A DNA stretch of 64,000 bases from an uncultured Muribaculaceae bacterium (GTDB taxonomy: Bacteria; Pseudomonadota; Alphaproteobacteria; Rs-D84): contig OZ246409.1 in assembly GCA_965231035.1 (NCBI GenBank), positions 257,222 to 321,221 on the forward strand, read 5' to 3'. The notes below the pieces were generated by a model. The model was given only the letters and a program-made list of their open reading frames with translations. It searched no databases and had not been told where the DNA came from. Numbering within the stretch: the first letter of the stretch is position 1; the number at the start of each line of letters is the position of its first letter. Below are positions 7,957 through 56,349 of the stretch, in pieces. The position numbers were made by a program, and so were the translations under genes.

Positions 7957-7994
7957 TCAACAAACCGTAATCATTATTCAATACAAATCTATCC

Positions 7995-9288
7995 TGTCCA
8001 ATATATTGGACACTTTTCGAGTGATATATTAAAGCTATGTCAAAATATATGTACATTATTCCATTGTCCAATATATTGGACAGGTTTATTTTTATTCTTA
8101 GAATTTATAATCAAATTCATAATCAGATTTATAATCTGATCTATAATCAAGACATATTCATATTATGCAGTTGTCCAATATATTGGACAAGTTTTTAAAT
8201 AACACATCAAGATTATAAAAAAGCAAACGGAAATAAAATATGAAATGTCCAATATATTGGACACTTTTTGATTGATTCGTTGATACTGTAAAAAACACAA
8301 AAACAAAAGGTGTATTGTCCAATATATTGGACAAGTTTTTAAATAACACATCAAGATTATAAAAAAGCAAACGGAAATAAAATATGAAATGTCCAATATA
8401 TTGGACACTTTTCGAGTGATATACTAAAGCTATATAAAATTATGTGCTTAAAAAACAAAAATAAAAGCCTTGATTGTCCAATATATTGGATAGGTTTGCT
8501 TAAATATATACGAATAAAAAGCAAAAATGAAAACCTTGATGTCCAATATATTAGACACTTTTATAGTGACACACTGAAGCTGTATCAAAACATATGTACA
8601 TTATTCCTTTGTCCAATATATTGGACACTTTTTGAGTGATATACTAAAGCTATATAAAATTATGTGCTTAAAAAACAAAAATAAAAGCCTTGATTGTCCA
8701 ATATATTGGATAGGTTTGCTTAAATATATACGAATAAAAAGCAAAAATGAAAACCTTGATGTCCAATATATTAGACACTTTTATAGTGACACACTGAAGC
8801 TGTATCAAAACATATGTACATTATTCCTTTGTCCAATATATTGGATAATCAAATTATTACCTATTTTCTACCTTAAATTTTATGTCAAAAAGATTTAGCA
8901 ACCGCAAAATTGTTATAAAACTTGGATTACCCGACGGCGACAAAATATTATAAAAACTGCTGCGCGAGATTCCCAAAATTTCAGGAATACTTTGTCTACG
9001 ATGGTGCGTTTTTGCTATTTCCATCAGTATATATTTTATTTTTTCTATATCTAAATTATCCAAAGCGATAGATAACTCAGATATCAAATATTGGTCAATT
9101 TCTTTATTATCAATAAAAAATTCACGGTTTATTTTTGGCTTTGATAAAAGTGAAAATCGCATAATTATTCTCCATAAAATATACGCGTATTATACAGTTG
9201 TCCAATATATTGGACAAGGTTATTTTTATTTTCAAAACCTATAAAATAAGGAATATACTTATTATAAACCTGTCCAATATATTGGACA
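7995..9288. repeat. Array of 14 copies of the 18-bp perfect palindrome TGTCCAATATATTGGACA (four copies are variants GGATA or TTAGACA) embedded in nested tandem duplications of about 144 bp and 220 bp
   Basis: Copies start at about 7995, 8065, 8172, 8246, 8316, 8390, 8475, 8540, 8610, 8695, 8760, 8830, 9199 and 9271. The 100-bp blocks 8171-8270 and 8315-8414 are identical, as are the 240-bp blocks 8390-8629 and 8610-8849. The region is AT-rich and has no credible ORFs apart from 8857-9162. Confidence 0.85.
8857..9162 (-). CDS. HigA-family HTH protein (putative addiction-module antidote, COG3636-like). It is orphaned, with no toxin gene adjacent
   Basis: The C-terminus GISRSSFYNILSPSGNPSFITILRLLNLFDIKFKV matches the conserved GMSRESLYRALSGEGNPTFSTVLKVLKALGLKL end of HigA/antidote proteins. 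A GGAG RBS is present, and the TATAAT -10 at about 9190-9195 lies 3 nt from the palindrome copy at 9199-9216. Confidence 0.7.
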   Translation of the reverse strand: MRFSLLSKPKINREFFIDNKEIDQYLISELSIALDNLDIEKIKYILMEIAKTHHRRQSIPEILGISRSSFYNILSPSGNPSFITILRLLNLFDIKFKVENR

Positions 9289-9404
9289 GGTTTATATTAT
9301 GCTTTTACACAGGCACGGACACAGATTATATAGATATAATACATATGTATGAATATTTTTGTCACCATGTGGTTAATTCCCCAGGATGACAATAAGAAAA
9401 AATT

Positions 9405-23464: not shown

Positions 23465-23487
23465 AATCTCTCTCCACCAAAGTGTTA

Positions 23488-25629: not shown

Positions 25630-25774
25630 CAGACACCACCCTACATAGTCGTTGTATGTAATTTTATCAAATGCTGGCTTCCCACGCAAGCAGATAAACG
25701 TATAAAAATACCTTGCTTTTTCAATTCATAGCTAATATCATCAAACTAGTATTTTGTTTACAAAAAGGTTATTT

Positions 25775-36754: not shown

Positions 36755-37855
36755 ATGAAAAAATATCTGAACAAGATTTTTGTTGGCGACTGTATTGAAC
36801 AAATGCGCGGACTGCCTGACAGCAGCGTAGATGCCGTTTTTGCCGACTCTCCTTATAACTTACAACTGGGCGAAAAAACACTTTACAGACCCGAAGATCA
36901 AACCGCCGCACGTGCAGTTCGTGATTCTTGGGATTATTTTGAGTCAAATGCTGAATATGATAAATTTACACGTGAATGGATGACCGAGTGTAAACGCGTA
37001 TTAAAGCCAGATGGTGCAATGTGGGTTATTGGCAGTTATCATAATATTTTCAGGGTTGGCAGCATTTTGCAAGATTTGGGATTCTGGATTTTGAACGATA
37101 TTGTTTGGGTTAAAAATAATCCTATGCCCAACTTTCGCGGGACTCGTTTCACAAACGCCCATGAAACTTTGATTTGGGCAACCCCGCACAAGACTGGAAA
37201 ATATACTTTTAATTATGAAACCATGAAAAAACTGAATGGTGGTAAACAGATGCGTTCTGATTGGGATATAAATATTTGCTTGGGCGAAGAACGTGTCAAA
37301 GATGAAACCGGTAAAAGCCTGCACAACACCCAAAAACCCGAAGATTTATTAAAACGCGTAATTTTGTCTTCCACAAAACCTGGGGATATTATTTTGGATC
37401 CATTTATGGGCAGTGGAACAACCGCAGCAGTTGCCAAAGAATTGGGTAGAAACTTTATTGGATTTGAACGCGAAGAATCTTATGTCACAGCTGCGCGTGA
37501 ACGCGTTGATGCAGTTAAACCAATTGATTTGTCTGAAATAGAAGTATCCGCCCCAAAGCGTGATGAAATCCGTGTAGCCTTTAATGAATTAATTGAAGGT
37601 GGATTGCTGTATGTCGGTCAAACACTGGTCAGTCCACGTGGTGAACGTGTAATGATAACACGTGACGGACAATTGACACACAGTCTGTATGGCAAAGCAT
37701 CAATTCACGTTATGGCAGCCAAAATACAGCGCAGTGCCAGCTTTAACGGATGGGATTATTGGAGTGCGATTAAAAAAGACGGAACACTTGTCGCGATTGA
37801 CGAACTTCGTAAATATATCCGCAACATAAAACGCGACATCAAAAAAGTTGCATAA
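36755..37855 (+). CDS. ccrM: CcrM-type N6-adenine DNA methyltransferase (GANTC)
   Basis: IFVGDCIEQMRGLPDSSVDAVFADSPYNLQL (DPPY motif); FNGT-like GSGTTAAVAKELGRNFIGFE; C-terminal extension typical of the CcrM clade. Confidence 0.85.
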   Translation: MKKYLNKIFVGDCIEQMRGLPDSSVDAVFADSPYNLQLGEKTLYRPEDQTAARAVRDSWDYFESNAEYDKFTREWMTECKRVLKPDGAMWVIGSYHNIFRVGSILQDLGFWILNDIVWVKNNPMPNFRGTRFTNAHETLIWATPHKTGKYTFNYETMKKLNGGKQMRSDWDINICLGEERVKDETGKSLHNTQKPEDLLKRVILSSTKPGDIILDPFMGSGTTAAVAKELGRNFIGFEREESYVTAARERVDAVKPIDLSEIEVSAPKRDEIRVAFNELIEGGLLYVGQTLVSPRGERVMITRDGQLTHSLYGKASIHVMAAKIQRSASFNGWDYWSAIKKDGTLVAIDELRKYIRNIKRDIKKVA

Positions 37856-41373: not shown

Positions 41374-41408
41374 AAAATCTCGACAATGCCGAGATTTTTT
41401 ATTTTTTT
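41374..41408. terminator. Bidirectional intrinsic terminator
   Basis: aaaaaATCTCGacaatgcCGAGATtttttatttttt. Confidence 0.5.
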
Positions 41409-44400
41409 ATATTCCCAACTTATGTGTCAGTTTTAACATAAATATGGATTCATTTCCAAATTCACTGATATTGTTTGGATTGATGCGATAAATCATCCCC
41501 AGCGCACCATCTGTAAATGCCCCCAGCTTTACACGATAGCTTCCTGTGAATCTTAATTCTCGCTTTTCTGGTGACAGACCCAAATCAGAAATATGGGTAT
41601 CCCTTACAACCAGATCATATGTTCCATCTGAATTTTCAACAACATCATAATCTGCATAAGCATATTTCATATCACCCGAAGTAATTGCCAAAGGCATTGC
41701 GGCCGAGAATGAAAAATTATTTACATCTGCCCCAACTGAGAATGAATTTGATTTAATATCCGACAATCCCAATATGAAATCACCATTTGGATTTGCACGT
41801 GTTTGTGCAAAAGTCGAACGAACTGAAAAATCAATATCCTTGGTCGGGCTGTATCTTGCAACAGTATCAACATATGTTGTATCACCCTGACCCAGTCCTA
41901 ACAATCCGCCCGTTTGTGCACCCAATACTGTATTTGTTTCATGTGCAGTTCCGATTGCTGATGTAATTGCAAACTTTCCATTACCCCATGTAACGTTTGT
42001 TTCACCACCCTGGATTAATCCCAGGTTTGCTGGCTGGTACTGACTGGTAACAGTTGGGTCATTTTGCAAAATAGATTCATCTGTAATATTTCCCGAAAAC
42101 GTACGTGCACCAAAAGACCAATTTCCTGATTTGTACTCGGCACCAGTTGAAACTATATTCGAAGCCAAAGATAAAACAGGATTCGCAGTACCGTCAAATC
42201 TGGAAACACCATCAGTAAAGTGACGCTGATAACCGGCGCTGAAATTAAAGTTACCGACACCATATCCAAATTGTAAATTATCCAAACCACCCATATTATC
42301 AACATAAGCTTTTTCGGATACAGCCATTTGGAATGTTACATTACCCGATTTGAATTGTTTTGGATTTTCTTTGGTTGTTTGGAAACTTCCCAATACATCA
42401 CCCATATAAAGCCCACGAACATCAGATGTACCCAGCGCAAATTCATTTTCCCAAACACGTGGCAATGACAACGTTCCATCAGAACTTGTCAGAACATCAT
42501 AAAATGGTGCACTTATTGATGCGGCACGTGGATTAAACACTGCAGATGATCTGAACAAAGTATTTGTTGCCGCACGCCAATAACCATTTCCACTTGTTGA
42601 TACTATTGAATCCCCATCATAGTAATAAACATTAGCTGTTGGTTTTGTTGCACGTTCAATATTAACCAATCCGTAACCAAACACTTCTTTGAAAACTTTC
42701 AAATAGTCTTCGCCACCTGAGTCAACACGATACTGGTATTCTGTTGGCAATTGATACATAGCCTGCAAATAAGTTTTCAATGCCGAAACTGTCATAGCAG
42801 TCCCGGTTGTAGTTGTTGCCAAATAAGGACCATCAGCAGTCAAAGCCAACAAAGCAAACAATTGTTTGTTATTCAAATAATCAAATGCGGATTTCACAGC
42901 ACCAACCGCCCCAGCCATACTGGATACAGCCAATTCGTCTGTCAATCCTGCCGCAGAAAAACACCATGGATCAATTCCATTTGCACCACTGCCCGCAATC
43001 CCACAAGCGCGTGATTTATAGTTTTTATCATCTAATGGATCAATTGTTCCCTGGGTATCGGTCCAAGTTGATAACGCAATCTTGCCAGAAGGAACATAAC
43101 CAGAAACGCTTGTTTGACCATTTGTGCCGGTACCATTCAATCCAACTGCAACAACCGACATAAATAAATGTTCCAAATTACTGAAAACCAATGGTGCAGA
43201 ATTTTCAAATGTCGCCGTTAATGTTTGTCCTGAATATGAGCTGTCTGTTTCTGCTGCACCAGTCGAGAATATTACCAATGGTGCCCAATCGCGAAGCCCG
43301 TAGTTGTAAAAGAAATCAAAAAAGAGGCTAGCATCTGCACTTGGTAATACTGAGGTTCCATCATTCTCATAATACAAATCAACATAATCAAAAAACTTAT
43401 CCTTATAGTTAGTCGGGGTAGGAGTAACAGATAAAATATCACCAACTGTTTTTGCATCACGATCATGCAGTGGTGAAATCACAGAAGCATTTGCAATAAT
43501 ATCCACTTTTGAACGACCTGTGCTTTCTTCTGGGTCAACTAATCCCGTTAAACCAATGGCATTCAACAATGCCTTGTAATTCTTATAATCTATATTTCCC
43601 AGTTCTTTTGTCAAAGCCAAATCATTATCAGATTCAATCGTATAGGCCTTATCAACAGTACCATCGTCATCGCTGTCAATGTATAATAAACCATCCAGAC
43701 CCTTGTATCCTTTATAAGTATGTGTTCCGTCAGTTGCAGTAAATCCCAACCCAGATGAATCTTTTGCCACTGTCAAAGTATAAGAAAACAGTGTCAAAGT
43801 ATCACTGGATGACCAGCCACTGGTGCTGTTATCAGTATACACACCAGAAACTGTGCCTGCTGCGGCTTTCATACCTTTGCCACCACCAGTTCTGAAAATT
43901 GTCATCTGGCCATTTGGCATAAATCCAATATAGTCAGCAGATGAATAACCAGAATCCTTACCACCGACAACCTTGGCTAATAAATCGTCTATATCTCTTG
44001 AAAAAGAATTATTTATAACCGTTCCATATCCAGCCAAGTCGAACGAATTTAGTGCTGCTGAACTTGAATCTTCTTCGGTCGAATCGTCCAATATTGAATC
44101 AGACTCTGACCCACGATTTATTTTATTATTATAATATTTGCTGGACATCATATTATTACTTGCAGATATCACGGCATTATTATTTGTTTTGCTCCATAAT
44201 AATAATCTATCTTCAAGTGAAGTATCTTGTTTCGCATTTATACCATTCTTTGTTATTATCGCAACATTTGTTGGGCGACCACCCATAACAGAACCACCAG
44301 TCAAAGAACGACCTGAAAAACTTAGCGGTGCTTTTGATTCTGTGTTTCGCAATGTTCGCATACCCATATAACCACGTGCCAGCGCAGAATATCCATGCAT

Positions 44401-45144
44401 CATCAATAAATAATTTTGTTTATACACATGATTTGTCGTATCCGTACTGGTACCGGTCATCAATGCGAAATTATCTTTTAAAATACCTGCGGTTGATGGG
44501 CTGTAATAATTCAAATTGTTTGTGTAATTCGCGGTTTCCGATGTCGCATTAGGCATAGCGGGACTGTAAGGTAATTGAAAAGACGCAGTTCCACCACCAG
44601 GCGTAACATTTGTACAATCACATGTGCCATCTGCTTTACATATTCCAACACTGGTAATTGAACAACGACATTGTTCACCCGAAACACATTTTGTATTATC
44701 TGTGCTGGTGGTATTACTATTTCCAGCAGATACAACATCCGTTAACATAAACAGTCCGCCAACAACAACGGCGGCCCCTGCCGCCGCCAACGCTATGCTT
44801 TGGGCAGAAGACAGCCCGCTGAACAATCCACCAGATTCTTCTTTTGGTAATTTGTTTTTATATTTTTTAATCTGATAATCACACTTCGAAGCGTCTGCAC
44901 CGTACATTTGTAAAATCTGTGCGGCACGAATATCATTATTCATCAATGCTGTGCAAACAACCGACAAGCCAGTATTATCAACATAGTTTATATCCGCACC
45001 ATTATTAACCAGTGCTTGAACCTGCTGAACATCACCATTCTTTGCTGCGGCCAGCAACTGAGCTGCAACCTTGAAATTATCCACTGCAAAAGCGGAAAAT
45101 GGAACAAAAATCAAAGAAAACAACAATAATCTTATGTACTTCAT
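41407..45144 (-). CDS. Giant secreted/outer-membrane-associated protein with N-terminal ankyrin repeats and a C-terminal region of about 1000 aa that is beta-rich and rich in G, S, T, N and Y
   Basis: Signal peptide MKYIRLLLFSLIFVPFSAFA. Ankyrin repeats AAKNGDVQQVQALVNNGADINYVDNTGLSVVCTALMNNDIRAAQILQMYGADAS. A hydrophobic Gly/Ala segment is followed by a long passenger-like region and a C-terminal beta-strand-like pattern resembling an autotransporter. Confidence 0.55.
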   Translation of the reverse strand: MKYIRLLLFSLIFVPFSAFAVDNFKVAAQLLAAAKNGDVQQVQALVNNGADINYVDNTGLSVVCTALMNNDIRAAQILQMYGADASKCDYQIKKYKNKLPKEESGGLFSGLSSAQSIALAAAGAAVVVGGLFMLTDVVSAGNSNTTSTDNTKCVSGEQCRCSITSVGICKADGTCDCTNVTPGGGTASFQLPYSPAMPNATSETANYTNNLNYYSPSTAGILKDNFALMTGTSTDTTNHVYKQNYLLMMHGYSALARGYMGMRTLRNTESKAPLSFSGRSLTGGSVMGGRPTNVAIITKNGINAKQDTSLEDRLLLWSKTNNNAVISASNNMMSSKYYNNKINRGSESDSILDDSTEEDSSSAALNSFDLAGYGTVINNSFSRDIDDLLAKVVGGKDSGYSSADYIGFMPNGQMTIFRTGGGKGMKAAAGTVSGVYTDNSTSGWSSSDTLTLFSYTLTVAKDSSGLGFTATDGTHTYKGYKGLDGLLYIDSDDDGTVDKAYTIESDNDLALTKELGNIDYKNYKALLNAIGLTGLVDPEESTGRSKVDIIANASVISPLHDRDAKTVGDILSVTPTPTNYKDKFFDYVDLYYENDGTSVLPSADASLFFDFFYNYGLRDWAPLVIFSTGAAETDSSYSGQTLTATFENSAPLVFSNLEHLFMSVVAVGLNGTGTNGQTSVSGYVPSGKIALSTWTDTQGTIDPLDDKNYKSRACGIAGSGANGIDPWCFSAAGLTDELAVSSMAGAVGAVKSAFDYLNNKQLFALLALTADGPYLATTTTGTAMTVSALKTYLQAMYQLPTEYQYRVDSGGEDYLKVFKEVFGYGLVNIERATKPTANVYYYDGDSIVSTSGNGYWRAATNTLFRSSAVFNPRAASISAPFYDVLTSSDGTLSLPRVWENEFALGTSDVRGLYMGDVLGSFQTTKENPKQFKSGNVTFQMAVSEKAYVDNMGGLDNLQFGYGVGNFNFSAGYQRHFTDGVSRFDGTANPVLSLASNIVSTGAEYKSGNWSFGARTFSGNITDESILQNDPTVTSQYQPANLGLIQGGETNVTWGNGKFAITSAIGTAHETNTVLGAQTGGLLGLGQGDTTYVDTVARYSPTKDIDFSVRSTFAQTRANPNGDFILGLSDIKSNSFSVGADVNNFSFSAAMPLAITSGDMKYAYADYDVVENSDGTYDLVVRDTHISDLGLSPEKRELRFTGSYRVKLGAFTDGALGMIYRINPNNISEFGNESIFMLKLTHKLGI

Positions 45145-45209
45145 GAAAACTCTCTCTGCTAGAGAAAATTTTAACATAAAAATGTCAAATCTGTCCAGCG
45201 GAAAAAATG

Positions 45210-45630: not shown

Positions 45631-46497
45631 ATGAATAAAAGTTTTGCCTTTTTCATATTTGCATTCAGCTTTGTATTTGCTGGTTTTTCTGCCGCAAGTG
45701 CTTCTTCGTGCTCGATTATGGATTTGAACAGATGTTTGGATTCAGCTTGCGGAATTAATATCAGCTTAAACCCCGGGGCACGTTGTCAGCTTTGTGGAAC
45801 TGCTCAGGCTGGTGCCGCTGATACAAAAGGATTCAAAAGTTTATCTGTTGGTGCATCAAACCGAAACACATTATCTGCATCAGATTTACAATCTGCGCCT
45901 TCTGACCCGGGATCCAGATACGCATGGGCCAGTGGCGAATGTTTAAAAAAGATTTCTGGTTGTACCGCAGATGATGTATCAAATAACTATGACAAATTAA
46001 TTGAACAATCTTGTCGTGCTGCGGGTGTTAACGCAGAAATGAATTCTTTGGTATCTGCTGCAAACAAACAAAAAAATGCAAACGTTTGTAATTCAGAAAT
46101 TCTTTTGTGTATGAATTCTGAAAAACATTGTGGCGCAGATTTTTCAAATTGCAAAACAGATGAAGATTTTAATAAACATTTTTCCGTCTGTGCATCAGAT
46201 ACAATTGGATGTGACAATTTTGTAAGTGATATGCGTACAAATATGATTTCACAGCGTGATTCTGCGACATTGGCTTATGATAATTCTGTATCCAGTATTG
46301 TTAAATCTTATCAAACAAAACGCGAAAGCGGATTGAAATCTGCAACAGATACTTGCACAAACAACAAGGGACGCGAAAGTTGCATAAAAACCGTTTGCCA
46401 GAATAATATGAAAAACAAGTGTGATAGTGATTCTGAAAAATCAATAGCGACATTGTTATGTAAATTTTACGACACAGCTTGCGGAAGGTTAAAATAA
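45631..46497 (+). CDS. Secreted cysteine-rich protein; small relative of the CGxDFxNC family. First gene of a four-gene operon
   Basis: Signal peptide; CSIMDLNRCLDSACG...; CMNSEKHCGADFSNC. Confidence 0.55.
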   Translation: MNKSFAFFIFAFSFVFAGFSAASASSCSIMDLNRCLDSACGINISLNPGARCQLCGTAQAGAADTKGFKSLSVGASNRNTLSASDLQSAPSDPGSRYAWASGECLKKISGCTADDVSNNYDKLIEQSCRAAGVNAEMNSLVSAANKQKNANVCNSEILLCMNSEKHCGADFSNCKTDEDFNKHFSVCASDTIGCDNFVSDMRTNMISQRDSATLAYDNSVSSIVKSYQTKRESGLKSATDTCTNNKGRESCIKTVCQNNMKNKCDSDSEKSIATLLCKFYDTACGRLK

Positions 46498-46500
46498 CAA

Positions 46501-48063
46501 ATGAAATTATACGGTTCAATTTTTACGACTTGTTTTTTGGCTACTGCCTTGGTGTTATCATATAACCCAGCAAACGCCGCGGTTGTTCAACGTGGATCTG
46601 TAACGGCGCGCGCTGCACCACGTGCAAATAATGCTATGCGTATTGCATCAACAACAACTACCAATGATACTGTTGAAGCAACAGATACAACAGTTGCGGA
46701 ACTCGAAACAACAGATACAGCAATTGCAGATGCAAATGTAATTGAAAACAAATCTTCTAAATTTGATTCTGTGTTGGGGGATGTTGGTTCAAATTCAATG
46801 GACGTTTCTGCAAAGTCACGCACACAAATGATAATGGATCAACGTGCTGCTTTGGATGCATCAGATACGCAATCCACCAGCAAAAAAGTTGTTACGACTG
46901 CGGGCAGCACTTGCGATACAAATTTGCGTAATTGTATGAAGCAAAAATGCAATAATGATTTTTCAAAATGTTCTGGGGACGGCGATACTGATTGGGGAAA
47001 CAAAATAAATTCTTGCCGTGCCACTTCAAATTGTTCCAGTGAAGAATTTAATTTATTCGCAGATGAAATCAAGGCAGACCGAGACTATAATTCAGAAATG
47101 GCAAATTATAATCAAACCATTGATTGCGGGAACAGATATAACAGCTGTATAATTTCGCAATGTGGTACAGATTTTTCAAAATGCCTTTCTAAATCTGTTG
47201 CAGATGCTGCGGTGTTGAATTGCACAAAAATCGCAACCGATTGTCAAAGTGCTGATAACGGTTTAACATCCAGGGCTCAAGAAGTTTTCGGTACACTTCG
47301 TAACAACGCCGTAACCCAGACAAAGAAAGATGAAGATCGCCTATATGAACTGCGCAATTTAATGACAGAACAGTGTAAAAGTTTCGGTGCTTCGTTTGAC
47401 GAACGCAGTTTGGATTGCGTATTCACAGTAAATCTGTTCGCAAATAATTCTAAAACACCAATGGCATCAAAAAAATTGTACGCCGGTGATACATTTGATT
47501 GTAACCAGGATTGGTTTGGTATTGATTTAACAACTTATAAAGAAAATGCTTATCGTTTAACACGTTCCCAGACGGCTGCATCATCCGCTATGTTGGGTGC
47601 AGGATTGGGTGTTGCCGCCGGTGCGATTTCATCGGGTGCAATCAGCCACGCAATTGATACACACAAGGCAGAAAAAGCATTAGACGCCGCAAAAGAAAAC
47701 TCGAATTCCTCAAGTAACAACGAATCAGGTTTATCATCAGTTGATGGAAGCAGCATGAATAAAACAAACACAGAAACTGAAACCTCTTCAAAAATTGATG
47801 TTGAAACAAACCGGGATCAGGTTTTAAAAGATAATGCTAAGATAACAGGAAATAACGCCGAAGCTATGGAAAATATGGATAAATCAAGACAAGATTATGA
47901 AACCGCCAAGAAAAACAATGATATGATTGGTATGGCAAATGCTGAAGCTAATATGCACGCAGAAGGAAGTAAAGTAAAAGAAATGGAACATATAGAGGTA
48001 TCTTCTACACCATCTGCACCAGAAAAAATAGATGCTTCAAAATTATTAGGTGGATCGAAATAA
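46501..48063 (+). CDS. Secreted cysteine-rich protein with a Gly-zipper hydrophobic segment; family relative
   Basis: CDTNLRNCMKQKCNNDFSKCSGDGD; CIISQCGTDFSKC; SAMLGAGLGVAAGAISSGAI. A 4-nt gap separates it from the upstream gene. Confidence 0.55.
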   Translation: MKLYGSIFTTCFLATALVLSYNPANAAVVQRGSVTARAAPRANNAMRIASTTTTNDTVEATDTTVAELETTDTAIADANVIENKSSKFDSVLGDVGSNSMDVSAKSRTQMIMDQRAALDASDTQSTSKKVVTTAGSTCDTNLRNCMKQKCNNDFSKCSGDGDTDWGNKINSCRATSNCSSEEFNLFADEIKADRDYNSEMANYNQTIDCGNRYNSCIISQCGTDFSKCLSKSVADAAVLNCTKIATDCQSADNGLTSRAQEVFGTLRNNAVTQTKKDEDRLYELRNLMTEQCKSFGASFDERSLDCVFTVNLFANNSKTPMASKKLYAGDTFDCNQDWFGIDLTTYKENAYRLTRSQTAASSAMLGAGLGVAAGAISSGAISHAIDTHKAEKALDAAKENSNSSSNNESGLSSVDGSSMNKTNTETETSSKIDVETNRDQVLKDNAKITGNNAEAMENMDKSRQDYETAKKNNDMIGMANAEANMHAEGSKVKEMEHIEVSSTPSAPEKIDASKLLGGSK

Positions 48064-48066
48064 AAA

Positions 48067-48663
48067 ATGAAAAAAGTATTAACAAGTATCTTTTCTATTC
48101 TTATATTAACGCCTGCAATCTCTACTGGTTTGTCAGACTACAAAAATTGTAAACTTAACATAGACTCAGAATATTCCAGAAAAGAACTTTCTTTAGAATC
48201 TCAACAGAAACTTGACACATGGATGAAAACGCCCCTAACAGAAGATAGAAAAGGTACATTTAATAGTATTTCATATTCTTGCCCAGCTGGGACACTTCCT
48301 AGCGACTGCTCCGGACAAGGAAAAGATATTTTAAAATCTCTATATGAAAAATATTTAAAACAAATGGAAATTGATGCTGCTGTGAAAGAAAAATGTACAA
48401 ACGACACTTCTATTCAGACAGATGTTAAAAAAACAGAAGTTGTGGAAAATTTAAAGAATACTGTTAAAGAGACCAATACTGAAAAAAATAGTAACTCAAA
48501 AGAAAGCTTCGGCAGCGGTATTAAGAATATGTTCAAATCCGACAAGAAAAAACTAGCAGAGGCAACTCAACAAGCAACAGATTCAGAAAAACAAGCATTA
48601 GAAGAATTTAACACATCTGTTCAAATTGCAAAATCTGAATTTGAAAGAAAACTTGGAATTTAA
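48067..48663 (+). CDS. Hypothetical exported protein
   Basis: Signal peptide MKKVLTSIFSILILTPAIST; K/E-rich. Confidence 0.4.
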   Translation: MKKVLTSIFSILILTPAISTGLSDYKNCKLNIDSEYSRKELSLESQQKLDTWMKTPLTEDRKGTFNSISYSCPAGTLPSDCSGQGKDILKSLYEKYLKQMEIDAAVKEKCTNDTSIQTDVKKTEVVENLKNTVKETNTEKNSNSKESFGSGIKNMFKSDKKKLAEATQQATDSEKQALEEFNTSVQIAKSEFERKLGI

Positions 48664-48675
48664 AGCGGCAATAAT

Positions 48676-50043
48676 ATGAAGAAACTACTTTTTGTATTTT
48701 TATTTTTACTTCCTGTTACTGCTTTTGCAGATGCTTTTGACGACGCTGTGGCAAAATATGAGTCTGATGTCAAAAATGCAACAAATATATTGAATAGTAA
48801 AATCACACAAAATACAAATCTTGTACAACTGTCCACAGATCAAGTAAACGATGATATGAAATCAACTGTCAGAACAGCTAAAAAGAAATTTAACAAACAG
48901 TTAAGTTCCCAAGAAAAAGAAGATGAACAAAAATATCAAGAAAAACAACAAGAAGTAAGTGAACAAACAGATGTTTCAAATTCCGCAAATTCATCAAATG
49001 TTACAAATCCTGATAAAATTGCCGAGCTTGAAGCCAATGCCAAGGCAATGAAAGATAAAGAAAACTCAACTGCAAATAAAATGCTGGGGGCGGCAGCCGT
49101 TGGCGCAACCGGAATTGGCGGCAGCCAATTGTTGCAAGGTCTGTCCGAAAAAAAATCAGACGATGCAGCCGAACGTGATATGAAAGCTTATCTGGCAACA
49201 TTTAAATGTGACTATGGTCAGGGACAAAATGTTAACGGTGGCGATAAATCAATCACCCTGCCCGGCGGAAATGTTTTAACATCTTATTACACAGAATATA
49301 AAACTCTGGCAGCTAATCTTAAAACTACGAAAACTGCTTTGGGATTAACACCTGGAATTGAATCTGAAACATTATTGGATAAATCAACCGCAGGGCTTTA
49401 TGACAATGAATCAACTGGCAAAAAATCTGGTGCTTTTGCCAGCGTATCTGATGCCTTGTCTGGGAATGCAGATGCTAAAGACGCTTGGAATGCCCAAAAA
49501 TCCGAAGCATCTAAAAAGGTCACAACTGGTATTGTTGCCGCCGGCGTTGGTATTGTTGGTGGCGCAGTTGGAAATATGTTGATAAATAAAGATTCCACCA
49601 AGGAAAGTTCAGATGTAAATTCTGATGATAAAAAAACAAATGATACAAGTTCTTCTGTGACTTCTTCTGATAAAAGCAATGAACAAAAAATATCTTCTGT
49701 TACAAATGATAATGTTTCTTTGGATAACACAGATAAAAAAACTAATACTTTTGAAGATTTAGACAAAAAATATAAAGACGCAGCAATCAAATTCAAAGAA
49801 GCAGACGAATTATATAATAAATTAGCTAATGAAAGTATGAAAAACGGTGGTGTTGTTACTGAAGAATTAGAAGATGCAAGAATTGCGCGCGACCAAGCAG
49901 AGAAAGACCTTGAAACTGCAAAAAGTGAAACTGTTACAGCCAATTCATCTATGAAAGAAATTCAAACTGGAAATAATACCTCTGATGATATCTCGAAACT
50001 ATCTAATAATTCTTCTACTTTGTCATTGCGAGGAATGAAATGA
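48676..50043 (+). CDS. Hypothetical exported protein with Gly-zipper segments; the last 9 codons and the stop are supplied by a repeat element
   Basis: Signal peptide; MLGAAAVGATGIGG and GIVAAGVGIVGGAVGNML. The C-terminus STLSLRGMK* is encoded by ttgtcattgcgaggaatgaaatga. Confidence 0.5.
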   Translation: MKKLLFVFLFLLPVTAFADAFDDAVAKYESDVKNATNILNSKITQNTNLVQLSTDQVNDDMKSTVRTAKKKFNKQLSSQEKEDEQKYQEKQQEVSEQTDVSNSANSSNVTNPDKIAELEANAKAMKDKENSTANKMLGAAAVGATGIGGSQLLQGLSEKKSDDAAERDMKAYLATFKCDYGQGQNVNGGDKSITLPGGNVLTSYYTEYKTLAANLKTTKTALGLTPGIESETLLDKSTAGLYDNESTGKKSGAFASVSDALSGNADAKDAWNAQKSEASKKVTTGIVAAGVGIVGGAVGNMLINKDSTKESSDVNSDDKKTNDTSSSVTSSDKSNEQKISSVTNDNVSLDNTDKKTNTFEDLDKKYKDAAIKFKEADELYNKLANESMKNGGVVTEELEDARIARDQAEKDLETAKSETVTANSSMKEIQTGNNTSDDISKLSNNSSTLSLRGMK

Positions 50044-50202
50044 TGTATTAACTGGATTGCCACGCTTCGCTCGCAATGACAAATTGTTGGGGTTAGTTAT
50101 AGTTCCAGTTTGTCATTGCGAGGAATAAAATGACGAAGCAATCCAGGTTGATAAAAGAAAAACATATTGACTGGATTGCCGTGCTTCGCTCGCAATGACA
50201 AA
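50019..50202. repeat. Cluster A of RPE-like hairpin repeats: two elements built from inverted units TTGTCATTGCGAGG...GACGAAGCAATCCAG and CTGGATTGCCrCGCTTCGCTCGCAATGACAA
   Basis: Units at about 50019-50033 plus 50052-50083, and 50109-50147 plus 50171-50202. Confidence 0.75.
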
Positions 50203-50208
50203 TCTAAA

Positions 50209-50237
50209 TTAAAAACCGCCCATTTGGGCGGTTTTTA
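50209..50237. terminator. Intrinsic terminator
   Basis: aaaaaCCGCCCAtttGGGCGGttttt. Confidence 0.45.
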
Positions 50238-50251
50238 ACTTTTATACCTTA

Positions 50252-52300
50252 TTATTGGCATGCGCCATAAGATACTGCAACTGGATGATTATCTACGCAA
50301 GTGCTGCCAGAAACAACACATGCTGTATTTACCAATTGTGTATTGGTTGAATTAACCGGTTTATAATTCAGCTGTGCTGCTGCGCACTGGTTCAAATCTT
50401 TCAGTGTTGCACAAGCATTCTTCCACGAAGTACAATCTGTCGCAGTTGCTGTTGGCATAATTGTATCTGGCAAACGCAGGTTCCATTTGACATAGAAGTC
50501 TTTTAACGAACCAATGCTATAAGATTTACCAAAGTCAACCTTTTGCAATCCGTCACCAACACGACAGTTAATGTTGTTCTTTTCAACAAAAGATGTGATT
50601 GCTGTTGCCAATCCACCTGCGGCGGCACCAGCACCGGCACCAATTGCAGTTGACGCCAACATGTTTGAATCCTCACCCTGCAATATTGTCAACTGATTCA
50701 TAACATTTCCCAGTTCTTTTACTTGTTTTCCAAATTCTTCACTATCAACGCAATTATTGTTATTCCCCGAACAATATGGTTTTATACCATTCTTTTTTGC
50801 AAGATTCAAGTTACTGAATGTCATGGCACATTTATCTGTCGATGTTATAACAGTATTATCATTAGAAAGTTTTTTTACCGTTATTTTAATACTTCTGGTT
50901 CCATCATCAGTCAGGTATTTTACCTTATCTTCTGTCAAACTATTATTCATTACTTCACGATCTTTATTATCCTTTGAAACTTTGTCAAGCATTGCTTTAC
51001 TAGTAGTTCCATCGAAAAGTATATCTTTTGCTGTTACATCTATATCTTCGGTATTAGTAATATTTATTGCTGAATTTGTTGTACCAGTTGTGCATGATTT
51101 CAATGCAACTTTTGCTGCTTGGTAATCACTGTAAAGTGTAACTATGGCTTCGCACTGATCGCCAATATATTCATTTACAATAATCTGGCTTTCAGAATCC
51201 AAGAATTGATTTAAAACAGCGACCTTGCCAGTTGCACGCAATTCCTTATCCAATTCTTTTACCTGATCTTTGTCTTTGCAGTTAAAGTTACGTTGACCAT
51301 GGCCGGCCAATGCACCGATACCTGCACCAACCAATGTACCACCACCAACACCAACGACTGATGTGGTCTTGGTCTTGGTCATCAAACCAAACCCAAACAT
51401 ATCTTTACCACAGTTAAAGCTGCTGCCTGCTGATTTCCAAACTTCGGCCGGTTGATCATTTCCAGCGGCACCAAATAACCAACTGTTTTTGATTTGTGAA
51501 TCTTTGTTGTACGCTGCAACACGAACCAAACATTCACCCTTGACCGCATCCCATCTGGCATAATGTCCACGTTGTGCATCAACAGTACCATTATTATTAA
51601 CCCTTACACCCTGAGGCATATCTTTGGTCAAAGATCCACCAGACTGACTGTTATAAGCACCAACAGTTTGGTTATATTCTTCTGTGACTTTTCCACCATT
51701 CGAAATCGCTGCAAAAGATGAACCATAAGTATTTTTATCCAACAACCAACATGTATTTTCTGCTTGGTTTGGTGTTAATCCTGTTTTGCGCAGAACAAAA
51801 GAATAATATTCAGGTTGAATCTTGCGAGAGTTATAGTCCCACCAAAAATCAGAAGAAGTAGCATAAACATTTTTGCAATTCTTACGAACGTCGCTGATAC
51901 ATTTATCCACCTGGGCATAACACAGACTCATTCCATTAAAGATAGAATTACGCAAATCTTCGTTGAACAAATCGTTTAACCCACCAGGAAGTGCACCGTT
52001 GTTAATACAAGAAGTAACATCGTTGATGCAATTTTCAACTGTATATTCAGAATTTGCAACACCACCATCTGGACACTTGGAAACTGTTGTTCCTGTATTC
52101 GTTGTAGTATTACCAGTCGCATTGCCAGGAAGAATTGACATTGTTGGCATACGTTGCTGACCTGCTGTATAGGCTGCCCCACGAACCGGTGCAACATTAT
52201 AACCCGCACGCCCTGTATCCGCTGCACCTGCAGAACCTAGAACAAAAACTGTACTTGCAGACACAATGGAAAACCCGAATTTCTTTAATAAATTGTGCAT
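50252..52300 (-). CDS. Large exported protein with Cys pairs and two Gly/Ala-zipper segments
   Basis: Signal peptide MHNLLKKFGFSIVSASTVFVLGSAGA; VGVGGGTLVGAGIGALAGHG; AIGAGAGAAAGGLATAITS. Confidence 0.45.
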   Translation of the reverse strand: MHNLLKKFGFSIVSASTVFVLGSAGAADTGRAGYNVAPVRGAAYTAGQQRMPTMSILPGNATGNTTTNTGTTVSKCPDGGVANSEYTVENCINDVTSCINNGALPGGLNDLFNEDLRNSIFNGMSLCYAQVDKCISDVRKNCKNVYATSSDFWWDYNSRKIQPEYYSFVLRKTGLTPNQAENTCWLLDKNTYGSSFAAISNGGKVTEEYNQTVGAYNSQSGGSLTKDMPQGVRVNNNGTVDAQRGHYARWDAVKGECLVRVAAYNKDSQIKNSWLFGAAGNDQPAEVWKSAGSSFNCGKDMFGFGLMTKTKTTSVVGVGGGTLVGAGIGALAGHGQRNFNCKDKDQVKELDKELRATGKVAVLNQFLDSESQIIVNEYIGDQCEAIVTLYSDYQAAKVALKSCTTGTTNSAINITNTEDIDVTAKDILFDGTTSKAMLDKVSKDNKDREVMNNSLTEDKVKYLTDDGTRSIKITVKKLSNDNTVITSTDKCAMTFSNLNLAKKNGIKPYCSGNNNNCVDSEEFGKQVKELGNVMNQLTILQGEDSNMLASTAIGAGAGAAAGGLATAITSFVEKNNINCRVGDGLQKVDFGKSYSIGSLKDFYVKWNLRLPDTIMPTATATDCTSWKNACATLKDLNQCAAAQLNYKPVNSTNTQLVNTACVVSGSTCVDNHPVAVSYGACQ

Positions 52301-52421
52301 TATTTCTCCCTTTAATTGTTTTAATTATAGCACCAAATACACTATAAAAAAAGTATTTTCTGTATAAAAAACAAATTAATATTCTGCGGTTTTAATATTT
52401 TTTACGTTTTAGTAGTAATAT

Positions 52422-52450
52422 TTGACAAATAAACAAAATTCGTCTATTAT
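52422..52450 (+). promoter_or_regulatory. Sigma-70-type promoter TTGACA-N17-TATTAT with the ATG only about 7 nt downstream; possibly leaderless
   Basis: The start of the track ORF coincides with the TTGACA box. Confidence 0.35.
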
Positions 52451-52457
52451 TAAATTG

Positions 52458-53384
52458 ATGAAAAAGCTGTCTGAGTTTTTAAAGACAAATGTGCTGGCAG
52501 TAAAGTGGACCTTTTGGTATTTTGCTGCGTTTTATGCTGTCCTGTCCTTTTTATTTGGATTTAATATATTTTCTGCAAATGATTGGATTATGATTACTCA
52601 TTCCAGATTGCGCGGACTACCTGGTTTTACTTTTGGAATTATTATGTTTTCAGCAATTCCTTTGTACATTGCGACTACTGCAACAATTATAAAAACGAAA
52701 AAACCTTTATTTAATTTCTTTACTGCAAAAAAAGAAGAACCTAAAAAAATAGCCGAAGAAAAAAAAGAAGTTTTCAAAGAAATTATTATTCAATTTCCAG
52801 AAAGAATGCCGACTGAATTACGTGGTGCGTTTATTCGTGCAAGACAACAAGCTGGTGTCAGACCAGAATCTGCCTTTGATATGAAAGACATAAAATCACA
52901 ACCAAAAGTGGCAATCGAAGAAAAAAAAGAAGAAACACCAGAATTTGGTTTACCATTGCCTGATAATTTTGATTTTACATCTGAAAACGAATCGCCTGCC
53001 GAATTACAGTTCAGTTCAACACCTGTGTTCAAAGAAATTAATTTTGGAGATTTTAATACAAAGAAAGATAGCAAATCACCATTGATTGAACATCTTGAAA
53101 GCAAAGGATATGAAATTGCTTTTGATGGTAATGTTGTAATCGCAAATAATTTTGCAATTGCGGTTCACGACGATTCGGATTTTTGGATTGCTGATAAAGA
53201 CAATTGGTTTGCAGCAGGCAAACAAAAAGAATCCCCCATATCCGAAGTTTTAATGGTATCTGAAAAACACGGTGTAAATGCGATGATTTATTTGGCGGAA
53301 AAAAATATTATGGATTTGGACAAACGAATTGCAGAATGGGAATTCAAAGGAGTCAAGGTTATTAAAAACCTGACTGAAATTTAA
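52458..53384 (+). CDS. Hypothetical membrane protein (3 N-terminal TM helices plus a cytoplasmic or periplasmic domain)
   Basis: MKKLSEFLKTNVLAVKWTFWYFAAFYAVLSFLFGF...; K/E-rich linker; C-terminal globular part. Confidence 0.4.
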   Translation: MKKLSEFLKTNVLAVKWTFWYFAAFYAVLSFLFGFNIFSANDWIMITHSRLRGLPGFTFGIIMFSAIPLYIATTATIIKTKKPLFNFFTAKKEEPKKIAEEKKEVFKEIIIQFPERMPTELRGAFIRARQQAGVRPESAFDMKDIKSQPKVAIEEKKEETPEFGLPLPDNFDFTSENESPAELQFSSTPVFKEINFGDFNTKKDSKSPLIEHLESKGYEIAFDGNVVIANNFAIAVHDDSDFWIADKDNWFAAGKQKESPISEVLMVSEKHGVNAMIYLAEKNIMDLDKRIAEWEFKGVKVIKNLTEI

Positions 53385-53398
53385 TTAGCTAATAAAAC

Positions 53399-53538
53399 TT
53401 GTCATTGCGAGGAGTGCAACGACGAAGCAATCCAGTGGATAAAAATGCAAAAGCATACTTACTGGATTGCCACGCTTCACTCGCAATGACAATCTGGTCT
53501 TATTTACTGGATTGCCGCGCTTCGCTCGCAATGACAAA
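53399..53538. repeat. Cluster B of RPE-like hairpin repeats (one full element plus one solo unit)
   Basis: 53399-53436 and 53462-53492 form a hairpin; a solo unit lies at 53507-53538. The units are the same as in cluster A. Confidence 0.75.
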
Positions 53539-53542
53539 GAAA

Positions 53543-53571
53543 TAAAAAATCCGCCAAGGCGGATTTTTTAT
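53543..53571. terminator. Bidirectional intrinsic terminator
   Basis: aaaaaATCCGCCaaGGCGGATtttttt. Confidence 0.5.
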
Positions 53572-56349
53572 TTACATCTGTACACCATTTGTAACTGTTG
53601 TTGGATCTTTGAATTTAGTACAAAAAACACCTTCAAATTTTTTCGTCACTCTTTTTCTTCCACCACCTATATGCAATATACCACCTCCACCTTTGCATCC
53701 ACCACCACCAAAAAAACTTAACCCACCATAACTACAAGTATTAGATTTTGAATAAACATCTTTAAATGTATCACACATAGTCGTAACTGTAGTTATATTG
53801 CAAGTATTAGATGAAGATGAATATACAGAAGTTAAAGAAACCTTTCCAATCATATTACCCTTAGTATCCGTTTGAGTCCATTCAGAATGACCACTGGATG
53901 CTACAGAAATTATATCCGACATCTTTGCACCACTTATAATATATTTCATTGAGTAAATATCATTACCAGACACACCTTTACTTGATGTATCATCAAACAA
54001 ATCAGCATAAGATGTAGCTTCATATGCTGTGCAATTCCCGTCAGAATCATAAGTTTTACAAGATTTAGGTTCTGATGCCATAGCTGCACACATTGCTGTT
54101 TTTAAATCATCATTTTGATTTTCTAATGCTTCTGATACCATTTTATCATACTTTTTATTATAGTTTTTATTTGCTTTTTCCAAGCCAGAATTCATTATAG
54201 CCAATATAGAAGAATCTAATAAATTTGGATATCTTGCCGTAGATGTTGTTGATACTGCATTTGTTCCATCACCACGAATTTGTGTCATATCACGACCCTC
54301 AATACACATCTTTATTTTTGCATCCTGAGACAAGACAGCTATCTTTTGATTCATCTTATTTGCCGTGGATTGTAAAGATGAAACAACGCGTGAGGTCAAA
54401 GAATCTGAAGATAATAAATGATTTTTGTAATCATTTATATCAATCTCGTACTTACCAAATTTTACATCTGTATCACTACTTTTTGTCCTTTCAATTTTCA
54501 CATTTCCATAAGAAACTAATCCTTCAATTACATAATCTCCATTATTATCCTTGTAACTGGATAAACTTTCTGTACCAATAGAATCATCATCATCGAATGC
54601 TGTGCAATTATCAGTATCACCACATATTTCTATCATTTTTTCAGACACAATTTTTTGACATTTATCCAGCAGCGAATTATCTATATTAAGGTAAATTCCT
54701 TGTACTATATTATCTATATCATTAATATTATTTAAAACGCCATCTTTTTGACATCCTACCAGTTTATCAATTGGACATAGTTTCTTTATATCACTCAAAT
54801 CTAAACCTATACAATTATGAAAATCTTCGCCGCAAGTATTTTCATTAGTGAAACATTCTTTAACTTCGGTTGTACAAGAATCAACACGCATTGCTGATAA
54901 TTTTGCATAGACATAATCCAGAATCAAAGGTTCTGCTGAAACACAAGGATCGATTTGCACTTTGCATAAAGAACGAACTGTTTCTGGACGTGATAAACAC
55001 ATATCATATGAACCATCCGGATCATTTGGATCAATTGTATCTTTACATGCTTTTTGGAAACATGAGGATATATTAGAAATACAATTTGTCCGTAAATTAG
55101 ATTCAGCCAATAGTTCAGCTGTTTTTAAAGTTGGTGCAACATCACGCAAAAATGAATTCCAAACCTGGTCTTTTACTGCAACACAAGAATTTGTTATATT
55201 TTCACACATTGGTTTTTTTGATTCCAGCGCATCCATAGTGGATGCAGCAACTGAAATTTTTGTATTTGATCCGGTTATATCAACCATCTTCATAGAAGAC
55301 TTAGAACTGCTGGACATCTTGGCATTTTCAGCCGCAGCAATTCCAACACAGCCTGTAAAATCACTTTTGCAACCTGCTGTATCAGTCATGCATTTTTCAA
55401 AAGCCAAAGTACACTGACCTAGGTCATATTTATTTGCTGTACGTAATGAATCCAAAGCGGCATCACGCAGAGCCTTTTGTGCAGTTGCTAATTTCTGTGT
55501 GCTGGAATTTTTTTGCTTAGTTAAATCATTTTCATACGCCGCACAATCAGATTTTATATTCTGAGAATAACCAAGTTGTATCATTGCCAAATCTTCTGAA
55601 CATTCTGGAATTTGTGCTGAACACAATTCAGCAACAGAACTATACAAGTCATTACCTGTTTTACCTTCAACAGGGCTTACCTCTCTTTGTGCAAATATAT
55701 CTTGATCCATTGTATCAGAATCCGTCTGATTCCACTGACTTAAATCCAACGTTTTTTTCTGGGTTACATTACTAGTTGTTAAACTATTTGCTGTATTGTT
55801 TGCAGATGCGATTACTTTATCTGCATCAGAACCCATTTCAATTTTTTCAACACCCTCGGTTGCCATTTTATAACTTTGAGCATCCAAAGCCTGAATCTGA
55901 ACCTGAACCTTATCCAGCTCAGCCTTGCGATCACTGCATAAACAACGACCGCCACTGGTGTTTTCAATCATACAAAAAGAATCCATACATCCATAATATT
56001 TTTGCTTACAAGCTTCATCCACTATTATATTCTTGTTCACACCAGAAATTGCAGTACCTGAATTTATAACTTTTTGCATAGTCCCAGCACGTGCAGAAAC
56101 AACTGGCGCGGACATTGGAGTTGCCGCAGATCTGGCAGATATTGTTCGAACGTTTGAAGATGTTGCACTGGGCATTACAGCTGAACGTGCAGAAGTTGGT
56201 CTGACAGCAGCACGTGCCGACACGGGTGTTTGTGCAGTGCTTTCAGATGGTTGTGATACAGATTGACCACGCCTTTGCACAGGAACTTCAGCATTTGCAC
56301 ACACAACAAAGGTTGCCATAAAAATAGAAAAAATTGCAATTTTTCTCAT
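53572..56349 (-). CDS. Large secreted cysteine-rich protein, family member 5 (close paralog of 20963-23464)
   Basis: Signal peptide MRKIAIFSIFMATFVVCANA; SARSAVMPSATSSNVRTISARSAATP; CKQKYYGCMDSFCMIENTSGGRCLCSDR; CGEDFHNCIGLDLSDIKKLCPIDKLVGC; Gly-rich C-terminus. Confidence 0.7.
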   Translation of the reverse strand: MRKIAIFSIFMATFVVCANAEVPVQRRGQSVSQPSESTAQTPVSARAAVRPTSARSAVMPSATSSNVRTISARSAATPMSAPVVSARAGTMQKVINSGTAISGVNKNIIVDEACKQKYYGCMDSFCMIENTSGGRCLCSDRKAELDKVQVQIQALDAQSYKMATEGVEKIEMGSDADKVIASANNTANSLTTSNVTQKKTLDLSQWNQTDSDTMDQDIFAQREVSPVEGKTGNDLYSSVAELCSAQIPECSEDLAMIQLGYSQNIKSDCAAYENDLTKQKNSSTQKLATAQKALRDAALDSLRTANKYDLGQCTLAFEKCMTDTAGCKSDFTGCVGIAAAENAKMSSSSKSSMKMVDITGSNTKISVAASTMDALESKKPMCENITNSCVAVKDQVWNSFLRDVAPTLKTAELLAESNLRTNCISNISSCFQKACKDTIDPNDPDGSYDMCLSRPETVRSLCKVQIDPCVSAEPLILDYVYAKLSAMRVDSCTTEVKECFTNENTCGEDFHNCIGLDLSDIKKLCPIDKLVGCQKDGVLNNINDIDNIVQGIYLNIDNSLLDKCQKIVSEKMIEICGDTDNCTAFDDDDSIGTESLSSYKDNNGDYVIEGLVSYGNVKIERTKSSDTDVKFGKYEIDINDYKNHLLSSDSLTSRVVSSLQSTANKMNQKIAVLSQDAKIKMCIEGRDMTQIRGDGTNAVSTTSTARYPNLLDSSILAIMNSGLEKANKNYNKKYDKMVSEALENQNDDLKTAMCAAMASEPKSCKTYDSDGNCTAYEATSYADLFDDTSSKGVSGNDIYSMKYIISGAKMSDIISVASSGHSEWTQTDTKGNMIGKVSLTSVYSSSSNTCNITTVTTMCDTFKDVYSKSNTCSYGGLSFFGGGGCKGGGGILHIGGGRKRVTKKFEGVFCTKFKDPTTVTNGVQM

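Follow-up and report, generated by a model that had tools for sequence, protein, structure and literature searches.

What are the short hairpin repeats that bracket a divergent gene pair in the genome of this uncultured bacterium, and did they bring those genes to where they now sit? Both questions arise from a 64,000-nt stretch of GenBank contig OZ246409.1 (hereafter the window), in which two clusters of repeats flank the genes at 50252-52300 (−) and 52458-53384 (+). An earlier note, made from the sequence alone, had likened the repeats to Rickettsia palindromic elements (RPEs), read the two genes as a possible cassette mobilized or delimited by them, and suggested that their presence together with the methyltransferase gene ccrM had a bearing on where the organism belongs taxonomically. 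We are fairly confident of a different reading, in which the elements are copies of the CGTC superfamily of repetitive extragenic palindromes (REPs) that carry a TGTC tag, are non-autonomous relatives of the system formed by the nuclease Ssn and its motifs, and lie passively at the ends of genes.

The window holds seven repeat units at two sites, 50019-50202 (cluster 1) and 53398-53538 (cluster 2). Together they make up two complete hairpin dimers of ~95 nt, one internally deleted dimer, and one solo unit:

50019-50083, both strands: internally deleted head-to-head dimer, made of a truncated A unit (TGTC at 50021, forward on +) and a complete B unit at 50052-50082 (forward on −)
50109-50202, both strands: complete head-to-head heterodimer, made of an A unit, a 24-nt spacer, and a B unit at 50171-50201 (forward on −)
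50110-50146, + strand: the A-type unit of that dimer, with a T-TGTC tag, ATTGC stem, GA, side hairpin GGA-AT-AAA-AT-GAC, GAA, GCAAT stem, and CCAG tail
53398-53493, both strands: complete head-to-head heterodimer, made of an A unit at 53399-53435 (+, side hairpin GGA-GT-GCA-AC-GAC), a 26-nt spacer, and a B unit at 53462-53492 (forward on −)
53499-53537, − strand: solo B-type unit (unit proper 53507-53537) with 8 nt of conserved spacer-proximal sequence

A 31-nt B pattern, CTGGATTGCC(A/G)(C/T)GCTTC(G/A)CTCGCAATGACAA, matched the window four times with at most two mismatches (at 50052, 50171, 53462, and 53507, all on the + strand) but found nothing in 100 dinucleotide-preserving shuffles. The 13-nt core TTGTCATTGCGAG is present in seven exact copies (three on +, four on −), which are confined to the two sites within the 64 kb. 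None of the seven units is expected by chance, and with four B matches and seven core copies the hairpin repeats are present just where the earlier note had placed them. The dimer at 50019-50083 has lost ~31 nt from its center. The solo unit at 53507-53537 is probably the remnant of a further dimer, because the 8 nt that precede B units in the dimers are still there.

Each unit (~30-37 nt) is an oriented imperfect hairpin, in which an unpaired [C/T]GTC tag is followed by an ATTGC/GCAAT stem with a GA/GAA internal loop and a small inner hairpin, and then by an unpaired CCAG tail. The tag is TGTC in all seven window units. A-type units have the layout T-TGTC-ATTGC-GA-[GGA-xx-nnn-x'x'-GAC]-GAA-GCAAT-CCAG and are oriented forward on +, with complete copies at 50110 and 53399 and a truncated one at 50020. 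B-type units have the layout TTGTC-ATTGC-GA-[GCGAAGC or GTGAAGC]-(G/A)(C/T)G-GCAAT-CCAG and run forward on the − strand (+ strand coordinates 50052-50082, 50171-50201, 53462-53492, and 53507-53537). In each complete pair of the window, an A and a B unit face head-to-head with their tags outside, separated by a spacer of 24-26 nt. Because the two arms differ internally, they are not true inverted copies of each other. Such units lie head-to-head for the most part, ~22 nt apart, and in single-stranded nucleic acid a dimer can also fold as one hairpin of ~95 nt. The long hairpins that had been proposed for 50109-50202 and 53398-53493 were borne out by folding: their energies were −37.6 and −40.4 kcal/mol as RNA (z about −8) and −22.6 and −26.0 kcal/mol as single-stranded DNA (ssDNA; z about −7), with both strands of the complete dimers folding about equally well. 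The deleted dimer at 50019-50083 folded at −22.1 kcal/mol (z −4.1).

This architecture agrees with the CGTC-tagged REPs of Di Nocera 2013 (PMC3733652), which comprise families CGTC-1 to CGTC-4 and in which the tag is often TGTC, the stem opens with A-T pairs, and the tail is CCA. According to that study, these REPs form mostly head-to-head dimers at the 3' ends of convergent or co-directional open reading frames (ORFs), occur mainly in Alphaproteobacteria and in five phyla overall, and belong to a superfamily that "apparently lacks a dedicated transposase" and takes in Neisseria dRS3 as well as RPE-4 and RPE-6 of R. conorii. The window units share with them an unpaired terminal tag of the CGTC/TGTC/CCTC set (TGTC in 7/7), A/T in the first two stem positions along with the CCA(G) tail (TGTC-ATTGC...GCAAT-CCAG), the head-to-head (hetero)dimer form, and a position at convergent 3' ends (three head-to-head dimers and one singleton in two convergent spacers). 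A further common trait is that Alphaproteobacteria predominate among the carriers, with members in other phyla. CGTC REPs also overlap coding ends on occasion, as happens here at the 455-aa ORF 48676-50043 (+), whose last seven codons (LSLRGMK) and stop come from the first REP unit (the first 24 nt of 50019-50083). Since the unit supplies the 3' end of this ORF, the insertion of the repeat remodeled the C-terminus of the protein.

The comparison with RPEs therefore holds at the level of the superfamily, which is shared with RPE-4 and RPE-6 (PMC3733652), and one Rickettsiales metagenome-assembled genome (MAG; L046) carries the same subfamily. Like RPEs, one window unit adds codons to an ORF. 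However, RPEs insert in-frame inside genes, whereas the window elements are intergenic apart from the one 7-codon 3' overlap, and a Rickettsiales-type label is too narrow for what are generic CGTC REPs. Translations of the repeats contain GLPRFARNDK, MPRFTRNDN, and LDCFVVALLAMT, close to the peptides that had been quoted as familiar from Rickettsiales repeats, but another of those peptides, LDCHASLAMT, is not literally present. The stems of RPE-4, RPE-6, and dRS3 also differ in sequence from those of the window units, dRS3 and the Neisseria motif NTS having ATTCCC...GGGAAT. In sum, the window elements are CGTC-tagged REPs or Ssn-related motifs, possibly of an under-described subfamily, within a class that is itself already known and widespread.

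For this subfamily we use the name ATTGCGAG...GCAAT; as a search string for both strands its unit reads [CT]GTCATTGCGAG. A 27-nt core, GGATTGCNNNGCTTCNCTCGCAATGAC, is nearly unchanged between genomes. With its 23 specified bases, this pattern was scanned against one genome per species, where ~0.02 chance matches are expected in the whole collection. It matched at least 120 genome stretches, confirming that the repeats are a dispersed family, as well as 87 IMG/VR viral contigs. The more specific B-arm variant of the window matched at least 119 metagenome stretches, and among the matches listed none came from the source organism. Genome matches listed include Bradyrhizobium, Sphingomonadales, Methylocystis, Legionellales, Coxiellaceae, the Rickettsiales MAG, and Azoarcus, and further ones come from Chloroflexi, Cyanobacteria (Calothrix), Bacteroidota, Prevotellaceae, Saccharibacteria, and a clostridial MAG (Eubacteriales). 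With the same core found from Bradyrhizobium to Saccharibacteria, the repeats lose the taxonomic bearing that had been attributed to them. Two other points of the note are supported: ORF 36755-37855 (+) encodes a DNA methyltransferase with the N6_N4_Mtase and RAMA architecture typical of CcrM, and the NCBI label of the host is Alphaproteobacteria. The 64-kb window contains no rRNA.

The repeats had the same build wherever they were found. Across 326 loci fetched with the 27-nt core, which hold 788 units, the tag was CGTC in 414 and TGTC in 351. Pairs were oriented head-to-head with tags outside in 190 cases, head-to-tail in tandem in 68, and tail-to-tail with tags inside in 36. The head-to-head spacer had a median of 22 nt, compared with 24-26 nt in the window, and A+B heterodimers dominated. 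The inner hairpin covaries: 143 of 197 distinct interiors were closed by at least two pairs, vs. ~14% by chance, and the pair types include GC/GC, GG/CC, AC/GT, GT/AC, and AT/AT. The window's own side hairpins, GGA-AT-AAA-AT-GAC and GGA-GT-GCA-AC-GAC, are compensated versions of GGA-GC-GAA-GC-GAC in Bradyrhizobium. These compensated inner hairpins indicate that the unit itself, and not the dimer alone, is the conserved structure. Head-to-tail tandem arrays of B-type units took the place of inverted dimers, at 34-37 nt spacing, in an Anaerolineae MAG (L077, 1825-2030, five copies) and in the clostridial MAG (L026, ~800-923, at least three copies). No NCBIfam model, nor any RPE domain model that this library may contain, matched six translated pieces of the repeat, and literature searches with 11-12-mers of the repeat and with typical peptides returned nothing relevant.

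The link to a nuclease comes from Chenal 2025 (PMC11893778), where NTS, generalized to a pattern called SRM, are the recognition motifs of Ssn, a single-domain GIY-YIG nuclease of ~95 aa. Ssn binds the hairpin in ssDNA only, and only on the tagged strand, cuts a few nucleotides 5' of the tag, and does not bind RNA; the ssn gene is in most cases bordered by copies of the motif that its product recognizes. In Neisseria, Ssn lowers transformation by DNA in an NTS-gene-NTS configuration, and NTS cluster near surface-protein genes. NTS and SRM are likewise oriented hairpins (CGTCAT-stem-loop-stem-ATCC(A/G)G), with up to hundreds of copies per genome, that stand on both sides of a ~95-aa GIY-YIG gene.

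The ATTGCGAG subfamily shows the same association, outside the window. Small GIY-YIG genes (PF01541, ~95 aa) are bracketed by its arms at L084, L098, L211, L266, L319, L351, L352, L353, and L354-356, most of them on both sides, and L211 and L351-L356 had been chosen by protein similarity alone. Arm-flanked ssn genes occur in Flavobacterium, a Limnohabitans MAG, and other genomes, and the Ssn of L211 is 100% identical to a Flavobacterium beibuense protein. All nine Ssn examined between ATTGCGAG-type arms (L084, L098, L211, L266, L319, and L351-L354) carry REKQ[IL]K[AG]GSR in place of REK.LK[KE]W.R.WK. By contrast, the K[AG]GSR motif is absent from 14 Ssn that lie beside other CGTC REP types (L212-L224 and L345), most of which have REK.LK[KER]W.R.WK and two of which (Planktothrix and Spirosoma) have KGW.REKK. 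This split between K[AG]GSR and the tryptophan class follows the motif type, which points to a candidate determinant of specificity. Thirteen plasmid-borne Ssn homologues lack ATTGCGAG arms and are flanked by other CGTC REP types instead. At 11 of these 13 loci the flanking hairpin units were picked up by a detector with the grammar CGTC/TGTC/CCTC tag, stem, short loop, stem, tail, and nine of the 11 are AT-initial with an ATCC-type tail. The two that deviate are sphingomonad plasmid loci (CGTC-GCCCCGTG...-TTGG and CGTC-ACCCCGGG...-CCCG). CGTC-type units at the Planktothrix and Spirosoma loci were recognized only by inspecting the flanks. Starting from the repeats, GIY-YIG genes were rare neighbors, found at 2 of 120 genome, 0 of 87 viral, and 2 of 119 metagenome loci among the matches listed. 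This first looked contrary to the link and was resolved by starting from the protein side.

Taken with these associations, the window elements are probably non-autonomous copies of an Ssn-motif system. A cognate Ssn would have spread them, or maintained them, by way of ssDNA intermediates, much as REPINs depend on RAYTs. From its motif, a K[AG]GSR-class Ssn is the predicted cognate enzyme of the window units. The copies would now be passive in the 3' untranslated regions (UTRs) of two + strand genes, where they may add a stabilizing hairpin. The resemblance to REPIN-RAYT systems extends to short hairpin units that bear a tag, to the predominance of hairpin-forming inverted doublets, to an enzyme gene that is present once and lies between its own repeats, and to a presumed action on ssDNA. 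Still, the tag is [C/T]GTC where REPINs have GTAG, and the associated enzyme belongs to the GIY-YIG nucleases, whereas RAYTs are IS200/IS605-type Y1 (HUH tyrosine) transposases. With their TGTC tag and a GIY-YIG gene between arms elsewhere, the elements fall outside the REPIN/RAYT group, though no search aimed at RAYT genes was made.

Several observations weigh against this account. The published SRM pattern, HGTCWYN(0-2)YYVSBRHN(0-5)WNVSBRGN(0-2)RNCYNB, has no match on either strand of the window, and the A, B, and Bradyrhizobium units all fail it while a Neisseria NTS control passes. Where CGTC REPs typically pair over 8-9 bp around a loop of 4-5 nt, the window units have a 5-bp stem, a GA/GAA internal loop, and an inner hairpin of 2-5 bp with a 3-nt loop. 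Because Bradyrhizobium CGTC-1 allows variant loops (PMC3733652), this mismatch weighs on assignment to a canonical family and not on assignment to the superfamily. Taken singly, the units form only weak hairpins in nearest-neighbor folding (z −0.3 to −1.9). A search of ~77 kb of the source genome, comprising the window plus 8.5 kb on the left and 4.3 kb on the right (12.8 kb of flank in all), turned up no ssn gene, and the source contig (848,746 bp) carries none of the 240 best Ssn homologues listed, so that a cognate nuclease in this genome is putative. The same ~77 kb held no units beyond the two clusters, so dispersal within this genome rests on no further copies. Published binding and cleavage data cover Neisseria and Wolbachia motifs only (PMC11893778); that Ssn would act on the ATTGCGAG subfamily is carried over from these related motifs, and the literature, too, treats the spreading of the repeats by Ssn as a hypothesis.

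Where the clusters lie among the genes bears directly on the supposed cassette. Both occupy neighboring convergent gene-end spacers (50044-50251 and 53385-53571), in each case between the stop codon of the + strand gene and a shared terminator:

50209-50238, both strands: hairpin resembling a bidirectional intrinsic terminator, located between cluster 1 and the stop codon of the gene at 50252-52300 (−); not a repeat unit, but a member of a terminator family within the window
50252-53384, both strands: the flanked gene pair, whose products are a Cys-rich secreted protein of 682 aa (−) and a membrane protein of 308 aa (+); context only
53540-53573, both strands: hairpin resembling a bidirectional intrinsic terminator, located between cluster 2 and the stop codon of the gene at 53572-56349 (−); not a repeat unit

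The earlier note was thus accurate in describing clusters that flank the divergent pair, with a terminator at each. Its cassette, by contrast, found no support in relatives. We compared the locus with three of them (L345, L347, and L348; RpoA 88-89% identical), where orthologues of the flanked and neighboring genes are 30-54% identical. The order and orientation RpoA-L17-925-308(−)-682 were kept in 3/3, so the check that the note itself had proposed, presence or absence of the segment in related strains, returned a syntenic segment every time. At L347 and L348 the cluster-2 spacer measures 31-35 nt and contains the terminator only, and the cluster-1 spacer is without ATTGCGAG units. In L345 (JGI Ga0310690_10001114) the spacer homologous to 53385-53571 instead contains an ssn gene (7655-8105) flanked by canonical CGTC REPs, CGTC-ATCCCGAC-gaag-GTCGGGAT-CCAT. 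Its cluster-1 site holds another canonical unit, and a ATTGCGAG-type dimer and other CGTC REP types occur elsewhere on the contig. Other assemblies of the source organism (L001-L003) match the window at 100% identity and hence offer no presence/absence polymorphism.

Conserved gene order without these repeats indicates that the gene pair is resident and that the repeats are lineage-specific arrivals at favored sites. A mobile cassette at 50252-53384 is accordingly not supported, since three relatives keep the 925-308-682 order and have none of these repeats at the corresponding positions. We infer that the two genes came to be bracketed because REPs prefer convergent gene ends, with no cassette mobility involved. 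A tentative extension, which we hold with less than even confidence, is that ATTGCGAG...GCAAT units and K[AG]GSR Ssn form a distinct, co-evolving pair of motif and enzyme that the SRM search misses, that has reached at least eight phyla with its 27-nt core almost invariant, and that is still mobile. In favor of present mobility, the REP-flanked ssn gene of L345 is placed exactly at the spacer of window cluster 2. On this view, modules of ssn and REPs, together with miniature forms derived from them, would insert time and again at gene ends close to terminators.

Other explanations were weighed against passive, Ssn-related REPs. The clusters might act mainly at the RNA level, as 3'-UTR hairpins that are transcribed with the 455-aa and 308-aa genes and shield the message against 3' exonucleases or aid termination, a role put forward for REPs at large. 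The position of both clusters between a + strand stop codon and a terminator fits this, as do the great stability of the dimers as RNA (z about −8) and the argument that many REPs are transcribed and act as RNA (PMC3733652). Yet the dimers fold equally well on both strands, and conservation across phyla extends to the sequence beyond the pairing. Units also occur solo, in tandem, and around ssn, whose product does not bind RNA (PMC11893778), and Rfam yielded no family match in the window (at gathering thresholds, relaxed to E ≤ 10 for 49800-53800) or in ten loci of other genomes. We therefore regard an RNA-level role as an unlikely primary explanation, but one that can coexist with passive REPs as a side effect. 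Less probable again is a role as functional boundaries, whether of a segment moved by recombination or of an NTS-gene-NTS arrangement that lets Ssn cut incoming ssDNA on both sides of surface-protein genes. The two clusters are the only ones in ~77 kb and are adjacent, and the flanked and neighboring genes encode secreted or membrane proteins that are fast-evolving (30-54% vs. 88-89% for RpoA), a setting that recalls the NTS clusters near surface-protein genes in Neisseria. However, the segment is syntenic in three relatives without these repeats there, which means that it was not moved as a block. Convergent gene ends are favored by REPs anyway, and the two clusters occupy two consecutive spacers of this kind. 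With just two sites, their adjacency has no statistical weight. The ~77 kb contain no ssn gene, and no competence is known for the organism. A Neisseria-like NTS-gene-NTS role is conceivable here by analogy.

We consider it very improbable that the elements are classical miniature inverted-repeat transposable elements, that is, deletion derivatives of insertion sequences moved in trans through terminal inverted repeats of ~35 nt. Their palindromic ~95-nt build, with inverted arms and an AT-rich spacer, and the internal deletion of one copy would suit such an origin. But no target-site duplication borders any of the three dimers, the A and B arms differ inside, and units also stand alone, in tandem (L077 and L026), and in all orientations. 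Moreover, clustering of the ORFs near arms at the 120 genome loci listed revealed no shared family except read-throughs of the repeat itself, and the sole gene found between arms was the GIY-YIG gene ssn.

Several further features of the window deserve mention. The ORFs 53385-53537 (−) and 53467-53721 (+), of 50 and 84 codons, read through REP units (peptides SLRAKRGNP, LPRFARNDK, and LDCFVVALLAMT) and are spurious, translation artifacts of the repeat. Cys-rich proteins with signal peptides and no Pfam matches (288, 520, 682, and 925 aa) are encoded at 45631-56349 and 20963-25689, and the 925-aa gene has a segment in common with the 733- or 833-aa genes. In the relatives, orthologues of this Cys-rich set are only 43-54% identical, compared with 88-89% for RpoA, and the set probably consists of surface proteins that evolve fast. 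Ankyrin repeats in a 1256-aa protein at 41407-45177 (−) hint at a host-associated lifestyle. Finally, the mostly non-coding stretch at 7972-9300 holds a dense array of at least 12 copies of a perfect 18-bp palindrome, TGTCCAATATATTGGACA, in which 220 bp are duplicated exactly in tandem (8390-8609 and 8610-8829). A second assembly of this organism has a break at window position 8420, inside the array. The array looks like an operator or iteron array.

For this window, our results remove a false lead, in that the repeats are evidence neither for a mobile cassette nor for an unusual phylogenetic position. Read-through ORFs of such repeats are also the kind that fills databases with "hypothetical proteins." The string ATTGCGAG was not found in the texts of PMC3733652 and PMC11893778, nor in the supplement of one of these papers, and a widespread subfamily of Ssn-type motifs escapes the published pattern. 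Literature counts of these motifs and the reported rates of Ssn-motif association are therefore probably underestimates. The candidate specificity determinant (K[AG]GSR vs. KKW) may be of wider interest as well, since Ssn enzymes are under development as sequence-specific cutters of ssDNA.

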